DNA of 64,000 bases from a bacterium (GTDB lineage: Bacteria; Hinthialibacterota; Hinthialibacteria; Hinthialibacterales; Hinthialibacteraceae), in the NCBI GenBank assembly GCA_963662285.2, contig CAXXMV010000002.1, positions 1,184,001-1,248,000 of the forward strand. The letters run 5' to 3'. Shown here piece by piece: positions 1,054 through 47,673 of the stretch. The notes below the pieces were generated by a model, which saw nothing but the letters and a program-made list of their open reading frames with translations, ran no database searches and was not told where the DNA came from. Every line of letters begins with the position of its first letter. Position 1 is the first letter of the stretch. A program made the translations under genes and the position numbers.

Positions 1054-3657
1054 ATGACTATGTTAAGAACCAGAGGTAAGCGGAATTCATGCGCCATAAT
1101 TTTGTTTTTAATGGTTATGTGTTGTTTTTATATTGGTAATGTTCATAGCGCAAGTGATAACTGGCCTTTTGCGATCACCGCGCAACACCATCCTGGAACC
1201 TATTGGTGGGCGCCTGGAAGCGCGTGGGATAAAGAGAGCATTGATTGGAATTTGGAAAAACTCAAAGAGGGCGGCATCTATACGGTGCATATTGTTCCAA
1301 TATATGGCGCCAAAGGATATGAAGACCGGTATATTCCCTTTTTATCTGATAAGTGGGTGGATTCACTGCAATATATTTTGCAAAAGGCCGATTCGCTGGG
1401 TATGCAGGTCGATATGACTACTGGCACCGGGTGGTGCTTTGGCGGGCCTGATTTAGATAAGAACCATGTTGATATGAGGGGCAGCCTGGATGAAAACACA
1501 GGTGAGTTGAAGATAGCCACTAACCGCATGGTCAAACGAGCCGCGCCGGGCGGCGCCGGGCACATGCTTAATCCATTTTCTCATGCAGCAATCGCTTCAT
1601 ATCTCGAAAGATTCGACAAGGCGCTGGAAAAATGCGATGTGCTGCCGCGAGCTCAGTATCATGACTCGTTCGAGTACAACGCCAACTGGTGCGAAGAGAT
1701 GCCGGATGAGTTTCTGAAAAGGCGGGGATACGAACTTACTCCTCATATCAAGACATTGTTTGGCAATGATGAAACAATAGAAAACACCTCCCGCATCAAA
1801 TATGACTACCGCTTGACGGCAGCCGAGTTGCATCAGGAGTTTATCCAATATTGGGCTGATTGGGCTAAATCAAAGGGCATGTTAACCAGGGATCAAGCCC
1901 ATGGCGCCCCCGCGAACCTGCTGGATGTTTACGCCACAGCGGATATACCAGAAACCGAGATGTTCGGTTCGCCGCAGTTTCCTATTCCCGGTTTTCGCCA
2001 GGAAGAGCAGTTTTGCCGCCCCAGCGACTCTGATTCCCGTATATGCCGCATGGCGTCATCGGCGGCTCATGTTGCGCACGAACCGGGCAAGCAACTGGTC
2101 TCATCAGAAAGTTGCACCTGGATGCGCGAACATTGGCATGGCACGCTGGGGCAGATCAAGTTGGAGATGGACTTGTTTTTCCTGGTGGGCATTAACCATG
2201 TGATCTATCATGGCTCATGTTATTCGGCCAAGGATGCGCCCTGGCCGGGTTGGTTCTTCTACGCATCGACCAAAGCGGATTGGCGCAATGCAATATGGCG
2301 CGACATGCCGCTGCTCAATGTATACATAGCCCGATGCCAATCAATGCTGCAAGCCGGACAGCCAGCCAATGACGTACTGATTTATTGGCCTATACATGAT
2401 CTTTGGATGGATGCCAAAGGTCTTTTGAAAAACCTGACGGTTCATGATCATCAATGGTTGGGCGAGAGCAGTTTAGGCGACGTCGCCAGCCTACTCGATA
2501 AAAAAGGTTATACATTTGATTACATTTCAGACCAAATGCTGGGGCGGATTAAATGTGAAAACGGAGAATTATCGGCGCCAGGCGGCGACTACAAGGTTAT
2601 TGTCGTACCTAAATGCCGCTATATGCCAGCAGATACTATGAATCAGCTTGCCAAACTTTCACAGCAGGGCGCCAAGATAATTTTTGAGGGTGAATTACCC
2701 GCCGATGTTCCTGGTCTTTCCGGCCTGGAAAAAAATCGCGATAGTTTCGCTAAACAAAAGGCGCGTTTGAAGAATGCAATAATCACCAATGATGTGGTTG
2801 CTGGTCTAATCCAAACAGGCGTTAAATCTGAATCTATGGTGAATCATGGGTTGCGCTTTATCCGGCGCAAGACATCTGACGCCTACTGGTATTTTATCGC
2901 CAACCATACGGAACGCGCATTTAATGGATGGCTTGATCTATCATCACCCTTCGCCTCGGCTGTTATACATGACCCCATGACTGGCGCGGAAGCGTTGGCG
3001 CCTACAAGAATGCAGGGAGAATCCAAACAGATATATCTGGATATCGCTCCCGGCCAATCCCTGATTATCCAGGCCAGTTCAATTCAAGAGGATGCGGCGC
3101 CTTATGTTGCGCTGAAACCGACGGGTAAGGAATTTATTCTTTCCGGCAAGTGGGAAATTGAGTTCATCGACGGTGGACCTGAACTACCGCAACCTTATAG
3201 CGCGGATTCGCTGTCATGCTGGACTAACGCTCCTGATAAGAAAGCTCAAGCCTTCGCCGGAACCGCCCGTTATAAACTGGCTTTTGACCTGCCGGACATG
3301 GACGAGGCTGATGAATATCTGCTTGATCTGGGCGATGTGCGTGAATCGGCGCGGGTGAAAATTAACGGGGAGACGGCGGCTGAACTTTTCGCTTTACCCA
3401 TGAGCGCCTGTGTTGGAAAATATTTGCGCAAAGGCGGTAACACGATTGAGATTGAAGTGACCAATCTATCGGCCAACCGCATACGGGATTTGAGTTTACG
3501 CAAAGTTGATTGGCAGATTATGAACGAGATCAACATCGTTAACCAGCATTACAAAAAGTTTGATGCTACTCAATGGCCTTTGCAGCCATCAGGTTTATTG
3601 GGTCCGGTTACTTTGAAAGCGATGGAGAAGGTCACTTTCATAATTGGGAAGATGTGA
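1054..3657 (+). CDS. Glycoside hydrolase family 106 (alpha-L-rhamnosidase-like), secreted
   Basis: Motifs PGTYWWAPGSA, TGTGWCFGGP, HDSFE, DIPETE, SSAAH, GINHVIYHG, C-terminal LDLGDVRESA...GLLGPV; signal peptide. Confidence 0.85.
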   Translation: MTMLRTRGKRNSCAIILFLMVMCCFYIGNVHSASDNWPFAITAQHHPGTYWWAPGSAWDKESIDWNLEKLKEGGIYTVHIVPIYGAKGYEDRYIPFLSDKWVDSLQYILQKADSLGMQVDMTTGTGWCFGGPDLDKNHVDMRGSLDENTGELKIATNRMVKRAAPGGAGHMLNPFSHAAIASYLERFDKALEKCDVLPRAQYHDSFEYNANWCEEMPDEFLKRRGYELTPHIKTLFGNDETIENTSRIKYDYRLTAAELHQEFIQYWADWAKSKGMLTRDQAHGAPANLLDVYATADIPETEMFGSPQFPIPGFRQEEQFCRPSDSDSRICRMASSAAHVAHEPGKQLVSSESCTWMREHWHGTLGQIKLEMDLFFLVGINHVIYHGSCYSAKDAPWPGWFFYASTKADWRNAIWRDMPLLNVYIARCQSMLQAGQPANDVLIYWPIHDLWMDAKGLLKNLTVHDHQWLGESSLGDVASLLDKKGYTFDYISDQMLGRIKCENGELSAPGGDYKVIVVPKCRYMPADTMNQLAKLSQQGAKIIFEGELPADVPGLSGLEKNRDSFAKQKARLKNAIITNDVVAGLIQTGVKSESMVNHGLRFIRRKTSDAYWYFIANHTERAFNGWLDLSSPFASAVIHDPMTGAEALAPTRMQGESKQIYLDIAPGQSLIIQASSIQEDAAPYVALKPTGKEFILSGKWEIEFIDGGPELPQPYSADSLSCWTNAPDKKAQAFAGTARYKLAFDLPDMDEADEYLLDLGDVRESARVKINGETAAELFALPMSACVGKYLRKGGNTIEIEVTNLSANRIRDLSLRKVDWQIMNEINIVNQHYKKFDATQWPLQPSGLLGPVTLKAMEKVTFIIGKM

Positions 3658-3702
3658 CAAAGGGATGTTTGAAAATCTAACCTTAAATATTGAGTAATAA
3701 AG

Positions 3703-3738
3703 TCCCCTTGCCCTCCGGGAGAGGATGAGGGTGAGGGC
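3703..3738 (+). repeat. Degenerate copy of the CCCTCTCCC..GGGAGAGG..AGGGTGAGGG intergenic hairpin repeat
   Basis: tccccttgccctccgggagaggatgagggtgagggc; related copies at 27228-27256, 47942-47982 and the interrupted copy at 22379/23900. Confidence 0.6.
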
Positions 3739-3771
3739 GAAATTAGACGTATTCCTTTAGGAAATTACACT

Positions 3772-5076
3772 ATGAACAATAGTATTGACCGTAGAAAGTT
3801 TTTCACCCTCAGCGCTATGTCCACTTTGGCTATCCAAACCTCCAGGATGGCCAATTCTTCTGTTAATCAAGATAAACCAGTGCGGATTGGTATGATTGGC
3901 ATGGGGAATCGAGGTTGTAGTCTTTTGGGTATACTTTTGGAGTTGAAAAACGTAGAAATCCCCGCGATATGCGATATAAGGCCGGAACGGTTGGATTACG
4001 CTAATTCACTATTTGAAAAAGCAGGGCATCAGCAACCTGAGATATATAGCCAGAACGAGTATGCCTTCGAGAAGGTAAACAGCCGGGATGATTTGGATGC
4101 AATAATTATCGCAACCCCCTGGGATTGGCATACCAAAATGGCGGTTTCCGCTATGAAATCAGGCAAATATGTTGGCGTGGAAGTGCCTGCCGCAGTTACG
4201 GTTGATGAATGCTGGGAGTTGGTTAATACAGCAGAGGATACCGGCGTCCCCTGTATGATGCTGGAAAACTGGAGTTTCAGGCGCGACAACCTGGCTTTAT
4301 TGAATATGATTCGTGAGGGGCTGCTGGGTGAAACGGTTCATGCTCAATGCTCCTATTCCCATGATTGCGTAACCTATTTCTTCGATAAGAATGGCAAGCC
4401 GCGTTGGCAGGGCGAGTTTCTTATCAAACATAATCGCGATCCCTATCCCACTCACGGCTTGGGACCTGTTTTGAGTTGGATGAACATCAATTGCGGCGAC
4501 CGGTTTGATACTCTGGTCTCAGTTTCGAGTGGTTCTTTCGGCGTAAATCAGTATTATGAAGACCATTTTAAGCAGGATGGCTCTGTGGAAGTTCCCAAGA
4601 CGAAGCAGGGTGATATTGTCAACACAATTGTGAAAACCAAAAAAGGTAAGACTATTTATATTACAAATGATATGCTGTTGCCGCGTCCTTATGATAACCG
4701 CTGGATGATTCAGGGAACCAAAGGCATTTATTCCTATGAACGCAATTCCATTTATCTAGAGGGGAAAAGTCCACAATCTCATACTTGGGAACCGTTTGCT
4801 CCATACCAGGATAAGTATGATCATCGCTGGTGGAAAGACGCTCCCGATAATGTTGAACAACTGGGTCATGGCGGGCCGGATTATCTGGAATTGGCCGGAT
4901 TTGTAAAAGCGGTTCGTAATAAGACTACCCTTCCATTGGATATTTATGATTCAGTCACCATGAGTTCTGTGGTTGCCTTATCAGAGCAATCAATCGCGCA
5001 AAATAACGCTTCAGTGCAATGCCCTGATTTTACCCGTGGCAAATGGAAGATCAATCCACCTCGATTTGGAGTGTAA
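3772..5076 (+). CDS. Tat-exported Gfo/Idh/MocA oxidoreductase, GH109-like NAD-dependent glycosidase
   Basis: DRRKFF twin-Arg signal, GMIGMGNRG Rossmann motif, IATPWDWH, EVPAA, MMLEN, YPTHGLGP, GHGGPDY, PDFTRGKW. Confidence 0.85.
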   Translation: MNNSIDRRKFFTLSAMSTLAIQTSRMANSSVNQDKPVRIGMIGMGNRGCSLLGILLELKNVEIPAICDIRPERLDYANSLFEKAGHQQPEIYSQNEYAFEKVNSRDDLDAIIIATPWDWHTKMAVSAMKSGKYVGVEVPAAVTVDECWELVNTAEDTGVPCMMLENWSFRRDNLALLNMIREGLLGETVHAQCSYSHDCVTYFFDKNGKPRWQGEFLIKHNRDPYPTHGLGPVLSWMNINCGDRFDTLVSVSSGSFGVNQYYEDHFKQDGSVEVPKTKQGDIVNTIVKTKKGKTIYITNDMLLPRPYDNRWMIQGTKGIYSYERNSIYLEGKSPQSHTWEPFAPYQDKYDHRWWKDAPDNVEQLGHGGPDYLELAGFVKAVRNKTTLPLDIYDSVTMSSVVALSEQSIAQNNASVQCPDFTRGKWKINPPRFGV

Positions 5077-5409: not shown

Positions 5410-5523
5410 ATTTATAGGATTAGTATCAAATAGATTCATGAAAAACATTTATTGATTTGTTATTGGCCACAGGGTGGATCGTAAGGGTTCGATAAAATCC
5501 ACATTAATTTGAGGTTGGAGACT

Positions 5524-8500
5524 ATGAGACGATTATTATTACAAGCGGTAATGGGTTTATTCGTTTTGAGCGTTGGCCTCTATGCAGGCGCTCAAGAGAA
5601 GGTGTTTACTCTCGCGGGAAACGGGACCAGCGGGTTTTTGGGTGACGGAGGATCAGCGCTTCAAGCCCGGTTATCTTCCCCATACGATGTTGCGGTGAAT
5701 AGTAATGGGGACGTCTTTATTGTTGATCATGGCAATAATCGCGTTCGTATGGTTAATGCTGCGGGCATCATCACCACCATCGCAGGAAACGGCAGCGCTG
5801 GTTATAGTGGAGACGGCGGCAGCGGAACAGCCGCTGCGTTGAACCGTCCCTATGGTTTGTGCGTCGATGCGATTGGAAATGTTTATATCGCCGACACATT
5901 CAATAACGTGATCCGTAAAGTCGACTTCAATGGAATTATTACTACAGTTGTCGGCAATGGCGATCAGGGTTATGAAGGCGACGATGGGAGCGCATTAAAC
6001 GCAAAACTTAATAATCCCTTCGGCGTGTCTATTGATAATGCAGGAAATTTACTTATTTCAGATACTGGCAACCATGTAGTCCGCATGGTGAATCCCAATG
6101 GAATTATCACGACTATCGCTGGTAATGGATTAGTGGGATATACCGGTGATGGTTTGCCCGCGACGGATGCTCGTATTAGCAATCCTCTATATGTTAATGT
6201 CTCTGTAACAGGTGAAATTTATATTGCCGATTCAGGCAATAATGTAATTCGTAAAGTAAACAGCCAGGGATTGATCTTCACCGTTGCTGGTGATGGTGAA
6301 GAAGGTTATGCGGGTGATGACGGTCAGGCGTCAAACGCCAAACTGACTAATCCCAGTGGAATAGCCTTTGATGGCGATGGAGATTTGCTTATCGCCGATA
6401 CAGGAAACCATGTGCTGCGTAAAGTTGATTCCAATGGAATCATTACTACTATTGCCGGCGCAGGAATTGCCGGATATGCAGGAGATGGCGGAATCCCAAG
6501 CAACGCAAAATTTGATAATCCAGTGCGCGTCATTATTGATGCCAACGGTCAAATATTTATTGCGGATATGAAAAATAATCGCGTCCGCTATATCACTCCA
6601 ACCGCTCCTTTGTCAGTCGAAGCAGGAGATGACCGGGTTGCTTTTGTTAATGATGCCACGCAACTTGACGCCAGCGCCTCAGGTGGAAGCGGCAACTATA
6701 GTTACTCGTGGAGTATTCTTTCCGGACCGAATGCCAGTTTGGCTCAGTTATCATCTTCAGTTGATGAAGATCCTATTATTACGCCGACTCATGCCGGCGT
6801 CTATGTGCTTCAAGTAGAAGTTAGCGACGGTGTTAATTCGCCGTTTGTCGATACTACAACTGTCCTGGTATTCAATCCCATTCCAGTGAATACCGTTATT
6901 ATTAATGATACAATTTCAACCCTGGATGACCTAAGTAATAGTATCGATTATGATGATGCGGATGAGCGCGCCTTGGTTATCCGCTGGAATCTGGATACAA
7001 CTCAGATTAAGCCTGAAGACGTCAGCGACATCAGCGTCTTCGTCAGCGTGGATGGCGGCGGCTATGTATTATTGGGCAGCGCGGGCAACGGCGTCTCTTC
7101 GTATATGAAATGGGAAGAGTCTTCCTCTGATCTGATTGAGCCGGAATTCCAAAGCGGTCCTCAGTTCGACAAGAGTTATAAGTTCCGCTTGTTCGTTTCG
7201 ACGCTGAGCGGTAATCCGCAGTTCTTCGGCCCGTTTGACACCGCTGGCGCCGTATCATTCAAGGAAGGCCTTGATCCAGAACCGACGCCAACCTTTACTC
7301 CGGTTCCGGTAGTTCCCACATCAACGCCGACTGTGGTAGAAGAACCTACTTCAACTCCAACTCCAGGGGAAGAGCCGACATTGACTCCTACTCCGGAAGA
7401 AGAACCTACAGCAACTCCGGTTTTGCCGACTCCAACTCCAGAAGAAGAGCCGACTGCAACTGCAACTCCGGATGTACAACCAACATCAACTCCTACTCCG
7501 GAAGAGGAACCGACGGCAACAGCTACCCCAGATGGAGAAGCCACGCCAACTGCTACTCCAGATGTGGAACCAACTGCTACGGCGACCCCGGATAGTGAAG
7601 CAACGCCAACAGCTACTCCGGAAGAAGAAGCGACTGCGACTCCGACTCCCGAAGAGCCGACTGCAACGCCGACCGCAACGCCGACCTGGACGCCGACCAA
7701 TACTCCAACGCCGACTGAAACCCCCGTACCGGGTGATCCTGAAATTCGGGTTGATCCGGAAACGCTGGAATTTACCCGCGAGGTAAACTCTTCAGTTAAT
7801 GTTAAGGAACAGGCTTCATTGCAGCAATCCGCGCCTCAGTCGCCCAATTTTGATTGGCAAATATTATTGAAGAGCGGCGTTGTTAATCCTGATTCGTTCT
7901 CTTCAAAATCCATTAGTCCATTCTCAACTCCACAGAAAAGCGGAACTGTTCAGCACATGCTGTTGCAGTTTAACAAAATTCCGTCATGGAAAGAGCAACA
8001 AGAGTTAGCGCAGCGCGGCATCCTCTTGCTGCAATATATCCCCCGTTTTGCTTATTGGGCGGCAGTGAGTTCGGATGGGTCTCCATTATCCTCTTCAGCC
8101 GTAAAGAACAAGGCTATTAGATGGATGGCGCATTCCAGTCAGATTAATCGACTGGCGCCGGAAGCTGCTGCCGGAGTATTCCCGCCCAACGCAATTATGG
8201 AAGATGGCCGCGTACAGGTCGTAGTGACTACCTTCAACGATATACAGAAGGCCGCGGCAAATAGCGCGATTGGTAAAAAAGGTGGAGAGATTATTGAGTG
8301 GATCAATGACAATTTAGTTCTGGTCGCTATCCGCTTTGAACGATTGAAAGCTCTGGCCGGACTGGATGAAGTTGAATGGGTTGAGCCGGCGCCTGCTCCT
8401 AACGAAACGGTTAATGCTACCGCATCGCAGCGGATTAATGCTACTGATTTAAGAACATTACCCTATGATGTAAATGGCAAGGGTGTCGTGGTCGGCGTAT

Positions 8501-11500
8501 GGGATGCCGGTCCGATTTATACCCATCCCGATTTCGGATCGCGTTTGACTGTAGTGGATTCAAGCAAGCCGGTTCATTATCATGCCACTCATGTCGGCGG
8601 AACCATTGGCGGCAATGCCGCTTCCGGCCAGACCAATGCGCTTGGCATGGCGCCCAGCGTCTTTATCCGTTCTTACGATTGGGACCTGGATACCTCAGAA
8701 ATGTCAAGCGGTTATGATGCCGGAATCCGGTTATCGAACCATTCTTATGGTGAAGTTGTCGGTTATTATTGGGATTCCGTTAAACAACAGATGGAATTCC
8801 TGGCTAATACATACCGGTTCGGTTTATATTCATCCGGTTCAGCTGCGTTTGATAGCGTCGTCTATGATAAAGGTTTGTTGGTCTTCAAGGCGGCAGGCAA
8901 CGACCGCGGCGAAGGCGATGGACCCTATGATACTATCCCCCCAAGAGGAGTAGCCAAGAATGTTATTACTATTGGAGCAACTGACGATAGCGACGGTATG
9001 TCTACCTTTAGCAGCTGGGGGCCGGTGGATGATGGCCGGGTTAAACCTGATCTCTGCGCCAATGGCGTTGGCCTTTATTCCACAATGCCCGACGGTAGTT
9101 TCGCAAGTTTATCAGGAACCTCAATGGCGTCTCCCAGCGCATGCGGCGCAGGCGCGCTCTTATTCCAACTTTATCAGAAAGAATTAAGTGACGAACCCGA
9201 TCCTGCTGTAATTAAAGCATTAATGATTCACGGTGCGGATGATTTAGGACGAACCGGACCGGATTATACCTACGGTTGGGGATTAATTAACGCCAAGACC
9301 AGCGCCGATTTAATTCTTGAAAGAATGTGGCGTGAGGGTTCGGTTTCAAATAGTAGTTTAGCTCCTTATACGTTATCGGTTCCCGCTGGTTCATCAGAAC
9401 TAAAAGTAACATTGGTTTGGACTGATGTTCCCGGATCGCCTTCAGCCAGCAAAGCTCTGGTAAACGATCTGGATTTGGTTTTGAAATCTCCCGATGGTAC
9501 AGTATATCGTCCCTGGGTGCTGGATAAGAATAATCCCACCAGTAATGCAACCACTGGCGTTAATACCGTTGATAATGTTGAGCAAGTGCTCATCGCCAGT
9601 CCAGCAGCTGGTAGTTGGACAATCGAAATTCAAGGGACGTCAATTCCCGGAGGCGCCAGTGATTACGCCGTCGTCACGGAAATGTTCCAAAGCGTAGACG
9701 ATTCTCAATCCTTCAGGATTTATAATGATGGCGATGGAACGCTTAATCTGGAATCAATGTCAGTTGAAGATGGCGGCTGGATCAACTTATCGCCGGATGC
9801 CCCTCTCAGCATCGCTCCAGGTCAGTTCCAGAAATTTGACGTGTGGATAAACTTCGACCAGACTCCCTATGGTGAATCTACACGGCAGATTGTAATATCG
9901 TCCAACGATGCGGATGAAAGTCCTTATGCGACTGGCGTTTATGTGACGGTTAATAATAATGCCACGCCAACGCCGACTCCTACCGTTACTCCTGAGCCTG
10001 TACCGACTGCCACGCCAACGCCCGCTCCGGCATTTCCGATCATACGGATCGAGCCGTTGACATTGAATTACGTCTATTCAGGAAATGTATCATTATTTAA
10101 CTCTGCTTTATCATTACCGGGCAGCGCTAATGCTCCTTCTGCATCAATCAACGCCGAGACGCCTGATTTTGATATTGCCGATACAACGCCCGACGGTCGC
10201 GTCCTGGTATGGATTTCATTTGAACCGGGAACCGATCTGAATGCCTTACGGCAAGAGATAGAAGCCAGAGGCGATGAGATCATAACCTTGACGCCTGAAG
10301 GGAAAATATTGATTGCCGTTCTTCCTGAGAACCTGTTATCAATGTCCGGCGTTGATGGCGTCGATGGCGTTGCGCCAGCCCTGCCCCGCACTGATTCGAT
10401 AACTGAGGCGCCTGCGCTTGATGAACCTTTCCTGGGCGCAGCTCAGCCATCCCAAGCAGATCAGGCGGTGCTTGATTCACTCTTTGAAGATGTTTCTTCG
10501 GTTCAGCCCAATGCGCTTTCCGTGATGAGGGCCAATCTTGATGGTCAAGACATGTTACCGGCTTCAGCGGATAACACTCTATCCAAATATTTCCCGCCGA
10601 TAAGAAGCCAGGGAGGTCAAGGATCATGCACAGCATGGGCGGCGTGTTATTATTACAACACCTTTACCCAGGCTTCTGATGAAGATCACGATGTTTCAAC
10701 TGGTAATAATGACTATATTTGCAGCCCGGGATTCATGTATCCGCTAGTTAACGGCGGCGGTGATAACGGCGCCTATACCTCTTATGTTGTTTCCCGCTTA
10801 AATGATATCGGCTGCGCCAGCTGGACGGAGAAACCGTATTCTGACAGAGACTATTCTTCTTGGCCCAGTGAAGCAGCCTGGCTGGATGCGTTGAAATACC
10901 GGACTAAATCCAGCAAACAAATATATGTAAACAGTTTAGAAAAAGTTCTTGAGTTGAAACAGCATCTTGCCAACGGTAAAATCGCCGCAACTCAAACTCC
11001 GGTTTATACTAACTGGTATTACTGGAAAGATAATCAGAATCGCGGCATTCAGAATGGCGTGCTCTTCTCTCACGCTGGGGAAACTTTAGTTGGTTATCAT
11101 GCCATGACAGTGGTGGGCTATGATGATGAACGAACTTTCAACACCGGTTCGGGAACCAGCAAGGGCGCCTTCCTGATCGCCAACTCATGGGGTCAGTGGG
11201 GAACCTACAATAGCCAGGGCAGCGGAAGCCGTGGGTTTATGTGGGTCTCCTATGATTACTTCATGACCGTCTTCCGCTATGCATGGTATAACGAAGACCG
11301 TGATGATTATCGTCCATCACTCTATGCCGCAACGGGAATGAATCACTCCAACCGTATTCAAGTGGCCTATAAAGGTATAGTCGGTACTCCTGAATCAAGT
11401 CAATGGACTTCGCATAGAGCGCTTGATCAGACTACTGGTAAGCCTAGCGGTAGTGCGTACTCAATGACGTCAACCAACCGGGTGATCGTCGATATGACTG

Positions 11501-13404
11501 ACGGTATTGCCCGTATTCCTGATATGAGCGATATTAATCTATTTGTTCAGTGCACCATGCCTGGCGCATCGGGGCAGCCAGTCTCCAGCGCTGAGTTCTT
11601 CCATGATTTCGATGGTGATGGCTCTTATGATAACATAGCATCAGAGAGTTCAGATATTGAAAATGCTGGAAATGATGTCTGGAATGCATCAGTGAAATTC
11701 ACCGCTTCGAACGATACATCCAGCTTCACCATCTACAATGATGGCGGGGTTGCATTGACCGTTTCAGCTGCAGCTCTTGATCAGGATGAACCTGCTCTGT
11801 CGTGGTCGCCTGAAGCTCCGTTTGATGTTGATCCCGGATCATCGCAGAAAGTATCTGTGGTAGTCGATTGGGATCAATTGGATATGGGTCAGTTTGTTAG
11901 AAGGCTGCTGGTTGAATCTAATGATGAAACCAATAGTCCATATCCGGAAGGTGTGTTTATTAGCGTTAATAAGGATGTTGAGCCGACGCCTACTCCAACC
12001 GCAACCAATACGCCGACGGCGACCAATACGCCAACTGTAACGAATACGCCGACTGCAACCAATACGCCGGGACCAGCAACGCCGACGCCTACTCCAGGTA
12101 ATGATCCGACGCCGACTCCTACATTAGCCGAGCCGACTCCGGTTCTACCTTCACCGACTCCAGGTGGCAATCCAACTGCGACTCCGACTCTCGGTGGTGA
12201 AGCAACCGCCACGCCTACTCCAGATAGTGGAGCAACCGCCACGCCTACTCCAGATAGTGGAGCAACTGCGACTCCGACTCCAGATAGTGAAGCGACTGCA
12301 ACTCCAACTCCTGGCGTTGAAGCAACTGCGACTCCGACTCCGGATGGAGAGCCAACTGCGACGCCAACTCCAGGTGAAGAAGCGACGCCGACTCCAACCA
12401 TTGAAGAAGGTACGCCTACACCAACAGCAACGGCTACAACTACGCCTACAGTGACTCCGACGCCGCAGGAAGAACCAACTGCGACGCCAACGCCTTTACC
12501 TGATGAGATTGAAGATAAATTTGATTTCGATAATGATACGCTGGAAGAACTTGGATTCAGCGTATTCCCGATTGACTCTAGTATTGAGGTTGCAACTATT
12601 CCTAAGGATAGTCAGCAGTCGGATGCAACCAACGGAACCGGTTTGAAAATCAATGCGATTCCTGGAACATTGATTACTATTAATGGTCCGGCCATTGAGG
12701 CTGTGCTTCAACCGATCAAGATTTCTCAATGGGTATCGGTTACCAGCGATGATATTCAAGTGGCGATGGGCGTTTACGCTTACCGGGATGGGCAAGCGGG
12801 CGCTGTGACATATAACTGGAATAGCGCTCCGGAAATCGCCGCCGGTAAATGGCGCCAAACCATGATCGAAATCGATGCCGGTTACAGTCGCGTTGTTCCG
12901 TTCCTGGCAATATATAATGCCGGCAGTGAGGCCAAATCAGTCTATGCTGATAATCTGGTCATTCTGCAAGGCATTGAAGGAACTCAGGGCGACGCTATTG
13001 AAATTGCTGAATGGCAGTCTAATCTCTGGTTGACTGAAGATGTCAGCGGCAACGCTTATACTGATGGCGACAAACTGGTTCTAGAGAAAGCGCCGGATAA
13101 GCAGGTCACCCGCTTTGGCGCGACTTATTCAGCCAGTGAATATCCACATTCGGTTGATGTTGAGATTGATGTTGTAAGGACGAAGGGTTCAACCAGTTCG
13201 CTGACATTATGGTTTGGCAACGGACCGAAAGCCTTCCAGAATGACATTCCGCTCTGGATGCTGAAAGAAGGCGTTCCCACTACCATTAAGATGTCGGGAA
13301 CCGTAACCCAGGATGTTGGTCCTATGATTGTGATTATACAATTGGCTGGTGATGACGATTCGCGGATCGTGGTTAACCAGGTGCGTGCGTTTAATCGAGA
13401 ATGA
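5524..13404 (+). CDS. Giant secreted multidomain protein: NHL propeller, PKD/Ig-like, PT linker, S8 subtilase, Ig-like, C1A papain-like protease, Ig-like, PT linker, C-terminal beta-sandwich region
   Basis: ATG 5524 after GGAG; signal peptide; six NHL repeats ([10 protein letters not shown]..ITTIAG); S8 triad VWDAG / HATHVGGTI / GTSMASP; papain motifs [10 protein letters not shown] / [10 protein letters not shown] / IANSWG. Confidence 0.9.
7276..7730 (+). repeat. Pro/Thr-rich low-complexity linker 1 (PTATATPxxE repeats)
   Basis: Imperfect ~30-nt coding repeats within the giant CDS. Confidence 0.85.
11980..12495 (+). repeat. Pro/Thr-rich low-complexity linker 2 ([10 protein letters not shown] repeats)
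   Basis: Near-identical 30-nt units such as gcaaccgccacgcctactccagatagtgga. Confidence 0.85.
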
Positions 13405-15631: not shown

Positions 15632-18600
15632 TTAATACATCATCCATTCCTTAACGGCGGTTTCAATATTGCCGGAAAATATTAAACCTGCCTGAGAATC
15701 TGATGATGGTTTAGGTTGATATGGCGTTGTCGGAGTGAAGGGATAAACCTCTTCTGGATTGCGAATCTGTACTGAATATTCTCCATTGCCTTTTTTGGTT
15801 ATGACATGGAGATAGTATATATGATTGCTGAGCAATGGCATGAATAACCGGGCGCTGTATGAGCCATTGGTGTTAGTGCTGAACATATATTTAGTCGGAT
15901 CATCCGGTCCATAAAGAGATACGGTGGTGGATTCCGCCAGATCATCTGAATCAGTTCTAAATTCCATCATATAGGTGGAAAACATGAATGGTTGAATGAT
16001 ATACCAATTTTCTTCTATTCTTCCGGAATTAAACACACCGTATTTAATATTTCCATTTAACTCCAGGTTTTTAGTTGAGAATGTTGCTAGAGTGTTAACT
16101 GATATATTGTAACGGCCATTAGATTTTGGCGATGTGACGCGCAATAGGTATTTCTGATCTTTGGACATGATGAGCAGGATCGGATTTGATAGCGTCCCTG
16201 TCATCAAACTACGGGTTGGATCGCTTGGATTATATAGACTGAATTGGAAAAATTTGCCCGGAGCGGGAATTCCCGCAGAGGCTTCAATAATAATTGTCCC
16301 AATATCCGATTGAAGAAATTCATACCAGTGTTCATCTCCGATATCGTTAAATTGATTGGAAACCGCTGGTCCATTGACTATAAGAGGGATGATCTCTGGT
16401 TCAACGGGATTCTCTGTATATTTTTCTATACTAATCCCATAGAATCCCTCGGACAATGACGTGTATCCGTTCACGCTAACGAAATACATGCTCTCTTGAT
16501 CAAGATATTGGGTGATGGTAGAAAACGTATCTGGTCCGCTATCGTCATCTTCAGCTAAAACAAGATTTTTATTATCTGGACCATAGAGAACAATTTCCGT
16601 GTCTGGATAAATCAGATTAGAAGCAGAACTGGTTTTGATGGTATAGAATCCTGATTCTTGAACCTTAATGCTATACCAGTCGCGGGTGTGCGACATATTC
16701 AATTCACTGGTGATAGGCGGTTGATTAATTTGCAATGGCGCTAAGACCTGGTCGTTTGATATTAAAACCGGTATGTCTTTGGAGAAAACAAAACCGCTGG
16801 CGTCGGTGATAGACATAGCTAAATTATGTTCACCAGTAGGGATGTATCTTGTATCCCATTGAATACGATGATTAACGACTAATTGATCTTGTTCAAACTC
16901 TACTTCTCCTTCAATGTCTACTGTATATGGGTTGTCGAGTACTTCTCCATCCAATTCGATTACCAGTTTGCTGATTCCTACCTTGCTGGTTGCATACATA
17001 TGAACGGGAACTATACCAGCAGTTATTCTTCTTTGTGGTTGAAGAATTAATAATTTAGTATCATTGTCCATGATTTTAAGACCTGAAACGCAAAGAGTAA
17101 AATTCTGATAAGCGCCTAAATTTACCTGACCACCGATGCGGATGGTGTACGTGGCGCTTGATGGTGATGCGATGAAAACCTGTTCTACATTATCTCTATG
17201 GTTTTCGGCGTCTTGTTTTGCTGATGCGCTTGGATTGCCCGGATCCAGCGTCCAGGGGAAATACTCATTATTTTTGTCAGTGATTGAAATATCCAGATCA
17301 TTTACTAGCGTTGTTACGCTATAATCCATTCCTGAGGTTGTAATCATTCCTGGTGGATCTATCCAGGTTAAAGTAACCTTGATTGGGCCTTCCCCCGAAT
17401 ATTTACCTGGTATTTGGATTTCAGAATCGCTGTAATAATCGTTAATGATATTAGTATCATCATTACTGAAATTATGGATAAAGTCAGCTGCTGCTTTGGC
17501 GTCCACCAAACCCCAGCCGATTCGGTAATCCGGTCCCGGATCAGTGCCTCCGTCTTGCGCGGTGTGAATCAGGATGCCTTTCATAACTGCGGCGATAGGT
17601 TCCGATCCGCCGAATTGCTGCTTGTATTTTTGGGTCAGACACGCGATGGCCCCGGTCACTACCGGCGCAGCCATGGATGTCCCGCTGAGGAGCGTGGTTG
17701 CTTTATCATTCATAATTCCAAGTGACAGCAGTTTTGAACCATTGGCCACTACATCCGGTTTGATGCGCCCATCATCCGAAGGACCCCAACTCGACCAGGA
17801 CGTGATAGTTGAGAGTTCGGGAGTGGGCGGTTCGATTAATATGTCGTTTATGGCCCCGACCGCGATGACGTTTTTACCAAGCGAGATGGGATTCATAGTG
17901 TCATAACCGTCATCTTCTTCTCCATCGATGCCTCGCGGCTCATTCGAAGTTTCCGGTCCGTCGTTAAGAATGTAAGAAGCTCCTATAACGGGCGGTTGTT
18001 GATTGCGGTTATTTCCCGCTGATACCACTATCAACAAATCATGGTCGTATACTATTTTATCAAAAGCGCGGCTATGGGTGCTATACATACCAAACCAGTG
18101 CGACTGATATCCGCAGACATCTGTATTGCCATACCAGTGCCATTTATTATCTTCTTCATTAAATTCCCAACCGACTGCTGAAGAATATGAATGGTTTGAA
18201 GCCGTGATGCGATGAGCGTTAGCATCCATTTCGTAGATGTCTGCGCTGCTGTTCCAGCAGAGAAGATTAACATTAGGCGCCATGCCGCGCGTCTTTTTGC
18301 CATTAATGCCGGATGCGCCGATGGTTCCCGCAACATGAGTTGAATGATAATGAGACACCTTGGCATTATCTACTTGCTTCGCCCGGCCTATCAATTCGGT
18401 GTGCGTAGTGCGTACGCCGCTTGGATCCCAAACGCCAACCGTCACCCCGCTTCCACCAAGATTGTATCCGGTTGAGCCGTCCGGTTGGATTTCATCGATG
18501 TTGGAGGTGTCCTGCGCGTTGATATTACAGGGCACTATTGGAGGTTCGATCTCTGTGATCAGCATGACGCAATCTTCTTCAGCCAAAGCGTCGATGCTGT

Positions 18601-19183
18601 TACGGGGTATAGCAACGCTTGCCATGGTTTGATGATAATCAAAACGGGTTTGAGTCGCGCATAGTATCGCTCCATGATTGAGCAGCGCTTGTTTGGCTTG
18701 GTTGAACATCGTTCCCGGGTGAAACATAACGAGAACTTTTTTTAGACTGATGTCCATTATTTGTACTGCGCTTTTCGGAGTTGCTTCGAGCGTCTTCCGG
18801 ACAGCGAAACCGATCTTGGCCTTAGCGGGAAGATGGGCTGCGCCGACATCGGGCTTGTTGTTCTGCAACCATTTGTATGCATCTGTAGTTGCCGTCACAA
18901 TGTAAGCGTTTGGGTGTATGTACTGTTCAAAATGGATATTGTTAGAGATATATATATCCCGCTCTGCTGGTGATAGAGGCGCATTGAATTGAAGAATGAT
19001 TCTTGTAGATTTATTATCAGATGGAAAGGTAAATGTCCCTGTATTTTGTAACTGAATCTTTACGCCATTTAGATCAACTGACGCCGACTTTGATAGGCAT
19101 TCAATTGCAGAGAAGAGGACGGATAATACCAAGAAGTAACACAACGACTGACGAATCATTCCACTCATTAATAATTCTCCCAT
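15632..19183 (-). CDS. Secreted S8 subtilase with propeptide, Ig-like and three PPC-like domains
   Basis: VGVWDPSG, HSTHVAGTI, SAGN, GPSDDGRIKPD, GTSMAAP; DWYSI..EDDDSG PPC-like repeats; true start probably ATG 19168. Confidence 0.9.
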   Translation of the reverse strand: MGELLMSGMIRQSLCYFLVLSVLFSAIECLSKSASVDLNGVKIQLQNTGTFTFPSDNKSTRIILQFNAPLSPAERDIYISNNIHFEQYIHPNAYIVTATTDAYKWLQNNKPDVGAAHLPAKAKIGFAVRKTLEATPKSAVQIMDISLKKVLVMFHPGTMFNQAKQALLNHGAILCATQTRFDYHQTMASVAIPRNSIDALAEEDCVMLITEIEPPIVPCNINAQDTSNIDEIQPDGSTGYNLGGSGVTVGVWDPSGVRTTHTELIGRAKQVDNAKVSHYHSTHVAGTIGASGINGKKTRGMAPNVNLLCWNSSADIYEMDANAHRITASNHSYSSAVGWEFNEEDNKWHWYGNTDVCGYQSHWFGMYSTHSRAFDKIVYDHDLLIVVSAGNNRNQQPPVIGASYILNDGPETSNEPRGIDGEEDDGYDTMNPISLGKNVIAVGAINDILIEPPTPELSTITSWSSWGPSDDGRIKPDVVANGSKLLSLGIMNDKATTLLSGTSMAAPVVTGAIACLTQKYKQQFGGSEPIAAVMKGILIHTAQDGGTDPGPDYRIGWGLVDAKAAADFIHNFSNDDTNIINDYYSDSEIQIPGKYSGEGPIKVTLTWIDPPGMITTSGMDYSVTTLVNDLDISITDKNNEYFPWTLDPGNPSASAKQDAENHRDNVEQVFIASPSSATYTIRIGGQVNLGAYQNFTLCVSGLKIMDNDTKLLILQPQRRITAGIVPVHMYATSKVGISKLVIELDGEVLDNPYTVDIEGEVEFEQDQLVVNHRIQWDTRYIPTGEHNLAMSITDASGFVFSKDIPVLISNDQVLAPLQINQPPITSELNMSHTRDWYSIKVQESGFYTIKTSSASNLIYPDTEIVLYGPDNKNLVLAEDDDSGPDTFSTITQYLDQESMYFVSVNGYTSLSEGFYGISIEKYTENPVEPEIIPLIVNGPAVSNQFNDIGDEHWYEFLQSDIGTIIIEASAGIPAPGKFFQFSLYNPSDPTRSLMTGTLSNPILLIMSKDQKYLLRVTSPKSNGRYNISVNTLATFSTKNLELNGNIKYGVFNSGRIEENWYIIQPFMFSTYMMEFRTDSDDLAESTTVSLYGPDDPTKYMFSTNTNGSYSARLFMPLLSNHIYYLHVITKKGNGEYSVQIRNPEEVYPFTPTTPYQPKPSSDSQAGLIFSGNIETAVKEWMMY

Positions 19184-42368: not shown

Positions 42369-43936
<1,568 letters not shown>

Positions 43937-44162
43937 AGTATTATGCCTCGATGGGGCGTTTAGCACCCTGAGATGGAAAAGCGTCGCTTCCTAGATGAAG
44001 CGGCCGAAGCTCAGATGCTTGACACTTAGTCTCATTCTTGGTAACTCCAAGGTAGAACTTATACAGTAACACCTGTTCGATTGTTATAGATCAAGGAAGA
44101 GCTCCTGCGCGCACTAGCAAATGTGAGTGCGCGTAAGTTTTGTCCGGATAATCAGTTCCGAG

Positions 44163-44238
44163 GGGCCTGTAGCTCAGCTGCGGTTAGAGCGTTCGCCTGA
44201 TAAGCGAAAGGTCACAGGTTCAACTCCTGTCAGGCCCA
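44163..44238 (+). tRNA. tRNA-Ile(GAT), CCA not encoded
   Basis: GGGCCTG/CAGGCCC acceptor stem, ttcgc-ctGATaa-gcgaa, GGTTCAACTCC. Confidence 0.97.
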
Positions 44239-44258
44239 ATCTGACAGTAGACTGAAAA

Positions 44259-44334
44259 GGGGCTGTAGTTCAGCTGGGAGAACGACGGCTTTGCAAGCCG
44301 TAGGTCACCGGTTCGATCCCGGTCAGCTCCACCA
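44259..44334 (+). tRNA. tRNA-Ala(TGC), CCA encoded
   Basis: GGGGCTG/CAGCTCC with G3:U70, acggc-ttTGCaa-gccgt, GGTTCGATCCC, ACCA. Confidence 0.97.
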
Positions 44335-44498
44335 TCATACGTTATATTTGCATTCGCCATATATTACCATGACGAACGCAAATATGCCTCGAATTAACAT
44401 TCGAGCTAAGTATTCAAATTATAGAATACTGTTCTTTGAAAATTGGTTTATAAAGTGTTGTATCTTGTTGTCGGGTGTTGTTGCTAACACAAAGATAC

Positions 44499-47460
<2,962 letters not shown>

Positions 47461-47547
47461 ATGTGTCTTTGATGCGGCAACATCCGACAACCGATACAAC
47501 ACTTGATATATAAACCAATTTAATCAACTCGAAACTACTTTTTAGTT

Positions 47548-47663
47548 TCCGGTGACAATAGCAGAGAGGTCACACCCGTTCCCTTTCCGAACACGGAAGT
47601 TAAGCTCTCTTGCGCCGATGGTACTGCCGCGGACACGTGGTGGGAGAGTAGGACATCGCCGGA
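47548..47663 (+). rRNA. rrf: 5S rRNA
   Basis: tccggtgac...CCGAACACGGAAGTTAAG...GCCGATGGTACT...GGGAGAGTAGG...cgccgga. Confidence 0.97.
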
Positions 47664-47673
47664 TCTATTTTTC

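Follow-up and report, generated by a model that had tools for sequence, protein, structure and literature searches.

An open reading frame (ORF) at positions 5509-13404 on the (+) strand of a 64,000-nucleotide (nt) stretch of DNA from a bacterium of the phylum Hinthialibacterota (contig CAXXMV010000002.1, positions 1,184,001 to 1,248,000; hereafter the window) encodes a secreted-type protein of 2631 amino acids (aa) that contains all parts of two modules, each of which is very probably a whole pro-protease carried within a split immunoglobulin-like (Ig) domain. Each module consists, in order, of a strand A/A', a disordered tether of about 25 residues, a prodomain, a protease, and strands B-G of a choice-of-anchor-D/ASH Ig domain; the pro-protease lies in the A'-B loop, and strand A/A' is predicted to complete the downstream B-G sandwich. 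The first module carries a subtilisin-like Peptidase S8 and the second a papain-like Peptidase C1.

In module 1, strand A/A' (aa 744-755, nt 7738-7773; all parts of the protein are on the (+) strand) is delimited by strands in the AlphaFold2 (AF2) model, the range of Ig superposition, and the gain of a joined sequence against a hidden Markov model (HMM). It is followed by the tether (aa 759-778, nt 7783-7842), which is poorly conserved in the alignment and has a predicted local distance difference test (pLDDT) score below 50 at model residues 26-45; the S8 N-terminal prodomain region with two beta-alpha-beta units (aa ~785-963, nt 7861-8397), seen in AF2 and in the alignment with 3afg_B (ProN-Tk-SP); the S8 catalytic domain (aa 990-1258, nt 8476-9282; Pfam Peptidase_S8, 133.4 bits); a beta-barrel as in KP-43 and Tk-SP (aa ~1274-1392, nt 9328-9684), placed by alignment with 1wmd and a weak P_proprotein match; and strands B-G (aa 1399-1483, nt 9703-9957), recognized by PF22544, NF012200, and seven AF2 strands. 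Module 2 begins with strand A/A' (aa 1510-1521, nt 10036-10071; AF2 strands and Ig superposition range) and continues with a tether (aa 1524-1548, nt 10078-10152; pLDDT below 50 at model residues 25-49), a beta-alpha-beta prodomain (aa ~1565-1623, nt 10201-10377; in AF2, strands at model residues 66-72, 91-95, 101-105, and 119-124 and a helix at 78-87), the C1 catalytic domain (aa 1683-1898, nt 10555-11202; Pfam Peptidase_C1, 26.8 bits, cut-off 20.7), a beta-rich domain (aa ~1938-2064, nt 11320-11700; AF2 and phmmer matches), and strands B-G (aa 2070-2155, nt 11716-11973; PF22544, NF012200, and AF2).

The split was first proposed in a sequence-only reading of the window, and the motif strings on which that reading relied lie where it had put them: the strand of module 1 at aa 744 (nt 7738), the start of its B-G part at aa 1401 (nt 9709) and VYVTVNNN at nt 9937, and, in module 2, the strand at aa 1510 (nt 10036), SFTIYNDGG at aa 2072 (nt 11722), and VFISVNKD at nt 11953. 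The large cargo said to separate strand A from the rest of the domain measures 658 aa (module 1) and 563 aa (module 2) from the strand to the F-x-I-x-N-x-G motif. Profile matches are truncated at the front. PF22544 (HYDIN/CFA65/VesB-like Ig) aligns its positions 14-91 of 100 with the downstream half of module 1 (aa 1391-1470; 21.2 bits) and positions 8-90 with that of module 2 (17.2 bits), and NF012200 (NCBIfam choice_anch_D) aligns positions 35-108 and 32-88 of 108, respectively; in Pfam and NCBIfam only the back part was matched, with no contiguous full-profile match including strand A for either half, and the upstream strand pieces of 48-51 residues gave no match on their own in a profile search. 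For the whole protein PF22544 scores 27.0 bits, summed over the two stretches, against a cut-off of 25.5 bits. The strict strand motif P.[ILV]R[ILV].P..[ILVFM].[FLYIVM] occurs six times in the 7.29-Mb genome, counted over every open frame of 100 aa or more (2,849,053 residues), and two of the six occurrences are those of modules 1 and 2; that two such motifs should stand at these places by chance appears unlikely from the sequence. The genome has only two split-type C-terminal halves at E <= 1e-10, both in this ORF.

An independent HMM of 55 non-identical contiguous choice-of-anchor-D domains from related genomes has the consensus ..PEIEVPPKSLDFGEVEV....TVTIRNTGNADL....ITSNDCDEP.., in agreement with the earlier statement that P-x-I-x-V-x-P-x-x-L-x-F followed by F-x-I-x-N-x-G and SND is the pattern of a contiguous ASH/choice-of-anchor-D domain; the HMM consensus begins ..PEIEVPPKSLDFG.., close to the upstream strand motif. 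Upstream strand pieces were fused in silico to the downstream halves and scored against this HMM, with random pieces as controls, and joining the strand moved the start of the alignment from HMM position 23-27 to 3-5. Module 1 rose from 18.8 to 29.2-34.5 bits (gain 10.4-15.7; HMM start from 26 to 3), with none of 200 random pieces as good, and module 2, at the natural junction, from 9.6 to 12.1-12.3 bits (gain 2.5-2.7; HMM start from 24 to 4-5), with 1-4 of 200 random pieces as good. With a DUF1573-like HMM, module 1 went from 11.4 to 18.4 bits, at the natural junction only. The joined sequence had been expected to outscore the half alone, which is clear for module 1 and a matter of a small rise for module 2. 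All 15 relatives that were joined gained as well (2.6-12.4 bits, mean 7.9; HMM start to 3-4), and random pieces did as well in 0 of 100 cases for 13 of them, 1 for one, and 4 for one. The same was found for 11 of 11 further modules, which include P0004 and P0005 (outside the set of 15) and modules with C25, HExxH, and second-lineage S8 cargo: the gain was 4.1-11.7 bits with HMM start at 3-4, and no random piece in 100 was as good for 10 modules and one was for the remaining module. At the level of sequence the relative P0260 gives the most direct evidence: behind its one split copy of the domain (strand at residue 151, half at 520) stand three contiguous copies that share the PDIRxxPxxLxF strand, and in each of these F-x-I-x-N-x-G comes 11 residues after the strand, which places the insertion point in the A'-B loop.

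AF2 models were calculated for each module singly, from alignments of 88 (module 1) and 77 (module 2) rows, and have a mean pLDDT of 88.0 with a predicted template modelling (pTM) score of 0.83 for module 1 and of 87.1 with a pTM of 0.81 for module 2. The motif is modelled as two short strands, at model residues 13-16 and 19-23 in module 1 and 13-16 and 19-24 in module 2. The 10-residue block of the strand has a pLDDT of 93 (module 1) or 83 (module 2), the flanking blocks having 58/58/37 and 56/50/29/38; since the strand pair is isolated between disordered flanks and yet of high pLDDT, it should be docked on something. Solved contiguous Ig domains of about 100-110 residues fit model ranges that run from residues 1-14 to the last strand of the C-terminal half. 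For module 1, VIA-align superposes 7sqc_F0 (chain 463-565) on model residues 10-750 (Z 11.8, root-mean-square deviation (rmsd) 1.9, 97 aligned) and 2qsv_A (chain 110-220) on residues 4-750 (Z 12.3, rmsd 3.1, 106 aligned), and further superpositions include 4zmh_B, 9ijj_h, 7n6g_4C, and the CEP192 ASH domain 6fvi_A; for module 2, 7sqc_F0 covers residues 10-656 (Z 11.9, rmsd 2.0, 99 aligned) and 2qsv_A residues 6-656 (Z 11.8, 103 aligned), besides MSP domains and chaperone-usher chaperones. The ASH/PapD/MSP-type sandwich fold is thus modelled with Z 10.4-12.3 (module 1) and 10.1-11.9 (module 2) over 92-114 aligned residues. The half has only about 90 residues, so at least 7-16 of the aligned residues have to be supplied by the N-terminal strand region; the strand in the models therefore occupies the place of strand A of an intact domain, as the proposal of an N-terminal strand within the C-terminal sandwich had anticipated.

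The alignment of the KP-43 structure 1wmd with the module 1 model runs to model residue 659, leaving about nine residues before strand B, and the strand that precedes the module 1 half accordingly belongs to the KP-43-type barrel. The best 50 matches of the VIA-align search of the PDB with module 1 were all subtilases and uninformative on the strand, the wider search being the informative one; a PDB sequence search with the C-half profile gave 13 matches, all at E >= 0.075 and read as chance. Prediction of a complex between the half and a 45-residue strand piece gave an interaction prediction score from aligned errors (ipSAE) of 0.54, against 0.00 for the best of three controls, with at least 85% of contacts agreeing between runs and a partner pLDDT of at least 57; the half itself had a pLDDT of 73 when paired with the strand, compared with 56-58 alongside unrelated partners. 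This score passes a mark that 116 of 157 solved complexes attain, as do 2 of 215 mismatched pairs, but scores up to 0.60 were obtained by only 18 of those 157 solved complexes and by both passing mismatches. The verdict of the prediction is 'weak support'; the pass, which comes from an author-made alignment, may only reflect the likeness to intact Ig domains.

Strand and half occur together in the relatives of the protein. Among 239 relatives, the C-half HMM gave 20 strong matches, of which 17 have the strand upstream (16 by regular expression, and P0005 with G replacing the first P); the records of the other three (the S8 module of P0002, P0007, and P0051) begin inside the module. P0051 was considered as a half without strand and rejected, its record starting at query residue 187, inside the prodomain. 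The strand stands without the half in four proteins (P0003, P0010, P0016, and P0040), whose records end or stop aligning before the half's place. Judged by these sequences, no complete relative examined has strand or half alone. In a regular-expression scan of the module 2 homologs P0122-P0175 (n = 54), the two parts are found about 563 residues apart in six, and at that spacing the remaining 48 show neither.

Within the phylum, split-type halves at E <= 1e-10 are found in 17 of 35 genomes, with 29 matches in all. The 20 regions around these matches, which leave out three matches on G030, G002, and G006, hold 24 halves, 21 with cargo upstream and three contiguous (two in L103 and one in L107); L095 was outside the cargo labelling, and the strand of L106 was located separately. 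Twenty of the 21 split halves with cargo have a strand 520-668 residues upstream and the last is on a truncated contig. Across hosts the spacing from strand to half amounts to 520-803 residues of cargo, and to 365 in the HExxH module of P0260; the half itself is conserved at 31-63% identity. A word-based search with the C-half, directed at longer proteins, yielded none among 38 candidates, which is weak evidence, and a single-protein scan of genome contigs confirmed one of 304 pattern matches, at a locus already in the set.

The cargo of module 1 is a KP-43/Tk-SP-like Peptidase S8 by its profile, its catalytic triad, and its modelled fold with a trailing beta-barrel. The triad residues D999, H1025, and S1205 are present, the H and S columns being invariant in the alignment; the model superposes on KP-43 (1wmd) with Z 49.1, rmsd 1.8, and 34% identity over 380 aligned residues, and on ProN-Tk-SP (3afg_B) over model residues 55-661 with Z 36.1, the N-prodomain included. 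By the same kinds of evidence, the cargo of module 2 is a papain-like Peptidase C1: C1707, H1864, and N1892 are present (the C1707 column at least 90% conserved, those of H1864 and N1892 invariant), and the model superposes on xylellain (3ois) with Z 26.9 and rmsd 2.5 over 240 aligned residues. The prodomain ahead of C1 has no Pfam prodomain match; as to a papain-type I29 propeptide, AF2 shows the beta-alpha-beta unit, and procathepsin alignments start only at model residue 131-146. The beta-rich domain after C1 also occurs, by phmmer, in C1 relatives without the split Ig.

The sequence-only reading had suggested looking in related genomes for the same split domain around other cargo, and Peptidase_C25, a second S8 lineage, and an HExxH cargo were found there. 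An orthologue, P0329, repeats the NHL-PKD-S8-C1 layout. In P0287 (4976 aa) there are three split modules, with C25, S8, and C25 cargo, and two stretches of Propeptide_C25, the best at residues 1467-1603 in the first module; this protein also contains M23 peptidase, PKD, Calx-beta, and InlB B-repeat-like domains and, with at least four peptidase domains, may be called a 'polyprotease'. P0384 combines one S8 module with one C25 module. The S8 of L094 belongs to a second lineage, having no phmmer link to the module 1 S8 at E <= 1e-3. The 365-residue cargo of P0260 (residues 163-515 of the protein) has no Pfam match but reads HEICHGLGF, an HExxH motif, and is possibly an undescribed metalloprotease family, as far as its sequence indicates; its best protein atlas score, 0.88, is below the lead threshold of 0.9, and M10 and M8 are leads only. 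All cargo identified in the 54 host domains examined consists of peptidases, most of them with prodomains. These numbers are not a cargo census: the search with the half profile covered 1.84 billion representatives and gave 13,648 matches at E <= 0.001, of which the best 150, ranked by summed score, are mostly tandem arrays of contiguous domains, four of the 150 having high single-domain scores. The PA14 domain of L107 was examined as non-protease cargo and rejected, the Ig domain there being contiguous with a longer A'-B loop. In P0043 (S8), PWLKVKPEAVSL at residue 370 lies 679 residues ahead of an IDIANEG-type beta-rich stretch at 1049, which scores 0.2 bits with or without the strand; P0043 could be a host of the split kind whose Ig subfamily has diverged.

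The whole pro-protease (tether, prodomain, catalytic domain, and trailing beta-domain) very probably sits in the A'-B loop, with strand A/A' folding back over 560-660 residues; such folding back would bring the entry and exit points of a module together on one small Ig domain. The last domain of the cargo runs almost directly into strand B, and a tether of 20-25 unconserved residues joins A' to the prodomain. Tk-SP, papain-like enzymes, and gingipains mature by removal of the N-terminal prodomain. If the cargo did likewise, autocleavage of the prodomain would also detach everything upstream of it, and the docked strand would serve as a non-covalent staple that keeps what lies upstream (the NHL propeller, the PKD domain, and, as seen from module 2, module 1) on the mature enzyme, an idea already raised in the sequence-only reading; a beads-on-a-string protein could in this way accommodate pro-proteases along its chain. 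In addition, the strand may keep the prodomain near the enzyme, as a clamp. The nested architecture together with staple, clamp, or both is the likely explanation of the observations as a whole; the staple function after prodomain autocleavage, taken by itself, is a tentative proposal that we rate a little below even. Self-cleavage is reported for KP-43-subfamily enzymes in passages of one article (PMC11982257). More tentative still is the full proposal that the split choice-of-anchor-D domain is a portable 'zymogen socket' for prodomain-shedding proteases, with strand A stapling both polypeptides after autocleavage and the cargo swapped by recombination. The exchange of S8, C1, C25, and HExxH metalloprotease-like cargo would take place at the tether and at the strand-B junction; in a tree of the 54 host halves, those of P0287 and P0384 that bear S8 or C25 form one group (91/91), a hint that cargo may have been exchanged within a lineage.

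The position of the prodomain in the relatives bears on the proposed staple. All 16 S8 relatives with the strand have the prodomain start at residue 151-529, and 61 of 66 without the strand have it at residue 70 or before; likewise, it starts at 195-724 in 7 of 7 C1 relatives with the strand and at or before residue 70 in 21 of 21 without it, the counts leaving out 5 (S8) and 48 (C1) rows that lack an aligned anchor. No relative has the strand directly after the signal peptide, the earliest positions being residues 108-151. A split Ig that occurs only where something lies upstream fits a stapling role, as read from the strand-bearing S8 and C1 sequences.

Several results weigh against this interpretation, in part or as a whole. 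Five S8 relatives have 106-197 residues before the prodomain but no strand motif, P0021 having a PKD domain there, and upstream domains therefore do not require a split Ig. Cleavage of the prodomain is presumed from relatives of the cargo, association of the fragments is a proposal, and docking of the strand is deduced from superposition ranges, pLDDT, and the weak complex score. Taken singly, both halves are below the PF22544 cut-off (21.2 and 17.2 versus 25.5 bits), and their NF012200 scores of 22.1 and 16.4 bits compare with a cut-off of 45. The joined gain of module 2 is small and vanishes at other junctions, where the half is trimmed further, and the DUF1573-like HMM, taken to represent too distant a subfamily, gives module 2 no joined gain. 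The AF2 runs covered single modules only, and the strand of module 2, 29 residues after the module 1 half, could compete for its slot. Finally, 11 of the 49 inner branches in the tree of host halves are well supported, and this poorly resolved tree has too few columns to tell repeated cargo swapping from one old insertion per cargo.

The main rival explanation is that the strand is a latency clamp only, anchoring the N-terminal end of the prodomain to the last sandwich, and that the holding of upstream domains is incidental; clamp and staple are not exclusive, and a clamp alone seems rather unlikely. It has a precedent in fervidolysin (1R6V), the closest solved analogue, which shows the order of module 1 (N-terminal extension, prodomain, S8, beta-domain, and last sandwich) and in which, according to passages of a review, the N-terminal region of the propeptide contacts SD2, the last sandwich, whereas the C-terminal portion extends across the active site (PMC11937091). 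In Foldseek, the module 1 model and 1r6v align over 745 columns (E 1.6e-19), the module models are consistent with an N-terminal extension of the prodomain that touches the last sandwich as in fervidolysin, and all cargo seen so far consists of proteases, most with prodomains. VIA-align, however, superposes 1r6v only on model residues 142-649, outside the strand, and there is no sequence match between fervidolysin SD2 and the C-half profile. The fervidolysin extension follows the signal peptide with no upstream domains, and the review passages do not describe it as strand A of a split Ig (PMC11937091). A disordered, unconserved tether of 20-25 residues between strand and prodomain would make a loose clamp, and a clamp would also work directly after a signal peptide, where no relative has the strand. 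That the arrangement is a neutral by-product, in which protease cassettes inserted into an Ig-repeat loop of repeat-rich surface proteins were harmless and so were kept, is less likely again. Domain insertion is common, being put at 20% of multidomain proteins in the abstract of one article (PMC13114784), discontinuous beta-sandwiches around a catalytic domain are known, for example in FiBAP (review passages; PMC11937091), and contiguous copies of the same Ig subfamily occur in similar proteins (P0260, L103, and L107). A neutral origin fits less well with the finding that, in 54 domains, the same loop of the same subfamily carries proteases of four or more unrelated families and nothing else, or with the conservation of strand and half and the presence of the layout in 17 of 35 genomes of the phylum.

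Two further explanations are both very improbable. The upstream motif could be an element of the linker end or the prodomain unrelated to the half, which would be complete alone or would borrow a strand from the neighbouring barrel. Pfam does detect the halves without the strand, and in C1 modules a PTVTxxPGxxGY strand precedes the half by about 23 residues; the latter strand is, however, also present in C1 relatives without the half (P0135, P0154, P0160, and P0167) and therefore belongs to the preceding domain. That the upstream motif is the missing strand is favoured by the profile coverage, the gains on joining, the confidence of AF2, the superpositions, and the co-occurrence alike. Alternatively, the module 2 strand at aa 1510, 29 residues downstream, could fill the slot of module 1, so that the modules would form a daisy chain or a circular permutation instead of folding back. 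The two strands do resemble each other, and AF2 was given one module at a time, but single-module relatives end soon after the half and offer only the upstream strand, for example P0009 (875 aa, half at 765-845).

Compared with known systems, the host of the split-Ig modules has the fold and sequence family of contiguous choice-of-anchor-D, HYDIN-VesB-CFA65, and ASH-PapD-MSP Ig domains, which differ in having no cargo between A' and B. KP-43 and Tk-SP subtilases resemble the cargo of module 1 but lack the flanking strand and half Ig, their alignments ending at model residues 659-661. Strands lodged in a sheet hold two polypeptides together in GAIN/GPS and SEA domains and in donor-strand complementation of chaperone-usher pili, on whose chaperone domains the module 2 model superposes. 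Cleavage in GAIN and SEA happens within the domain itself, whereas here the presumed cut would be in the inserted cargo, and retention after the cut is a proposal. Discontinuous beta-sandwiches, as in FiBAP (review passages; PMC11937091) and in amidohydrolase-type enzymes, are likewise assembled from an N-terminal and a C-terminal segment that flank the enzyme. That pairing is fixed to one enzyme family, whereas here one Ig subfamily hosts S8, C1, C25, and HExxH cargo, contributes no more than one strand pair on the N-side, and has its modules in tandem. Domain insertion and discontinuous sandwiches are themselves well known; what is new is that a single Ig subfamily repeatedly hosts entire zymogens from four or more peptidase families, in tandem within giant proteins and with one strand pair on the N-side. 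A literature search outside of which most subscription papers lay gave no account of a split ASH/choice-of-anchor-D domain with a protease nested inside it.

The remainder of the 2631-residue protein, from its N-terminus, comprises a signal-peptide-like sequence (read from the translation), an NHL beta-propeller (aa ~30-360) and a K319L-like PKD domain (aa 372-454), a region without Pfam match, and a Pro/Thr-rich linker ahead of module 1; a further such linker separates the modules, and a long one separates module 2 from the C-terminal domain. Propeller and PKD domain, both N-terminal to the two modules, occupy nt 5596-6870 (TEN_NHL 147.4 bits, NHL 72 bits, and PF22352 28.3 bits in Pfam). The unmatched region (aa ~455-600, nt 6871-7308) is conserved and contains LVIRWNLD and KFRLFV; a similar stretch follows the PKD domains in L107 (G009), and in P0004 such a region lies between strand A and prodomain as part of the cargo, stretching the spacing to 803 residues. 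The linker after it, read from the translation, is rich in Pro, Thr, and Glu (aa ~600-741, nt 7306-7731). The C-terminal domain of about 290 aa (aa 2340-2631, nt 12526-13401) matches 0 Pfam families at E <= 10, and by reading there is no recognizable sorting signal at the very end of the translation.

Upstream of the ORF, at nt 1054-5076 (+), are genes for a member of the GH106 alpha-L-rhamnosidase family and for a GH109-like protein with a Rossmann fold and a twin-arginine-like N-terminus; these glycoside-hydrolase-like neighbours suggest a polymer-degrading neighbourhood. Two genes downstream is a second large subtilase (nt 15632-19183, (-) strand, 1183 aa, Peptidase_S8 at aa 244-558) without a split-type half. 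A complete ribosomal RNA operon at nt 42369-47664 (+), with 16S at 42369-43930, tRNAs at 44163-44238 and 44259-44331, 23S at 44499-47460, and 5S at 47548-47664, accounts for an ORF-poor stretch of higher GC content in the window.

Profile scans see the sub-threshold half of the split domain and miss the upstream strand, so that these proteins are mis-segmented in annotation. Even as a mere by-product of insertion, the modules would show cleanly and repeatedly how a single host domain can carry cargo that is interchangeable. A host of about 100 residues that tolerates inserts of 365-800 residues from several enzyme families, while bringing its two ends together, could be considered as a scaffold in display or in split-and-reassemble designs. 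If the proposed staple is real, the fold-back strand would solve a topological problem, namely that prodomain-dependent proteases lose everything N-terminal to the prodomain on maturing, and it would explain 'polyproteases' of 2600-5000 residues such as P0287, with three modules and M23; the socket would then let bacteria build self-maturing assemblies of multiple proteases and multiple binding domains from a single gene.

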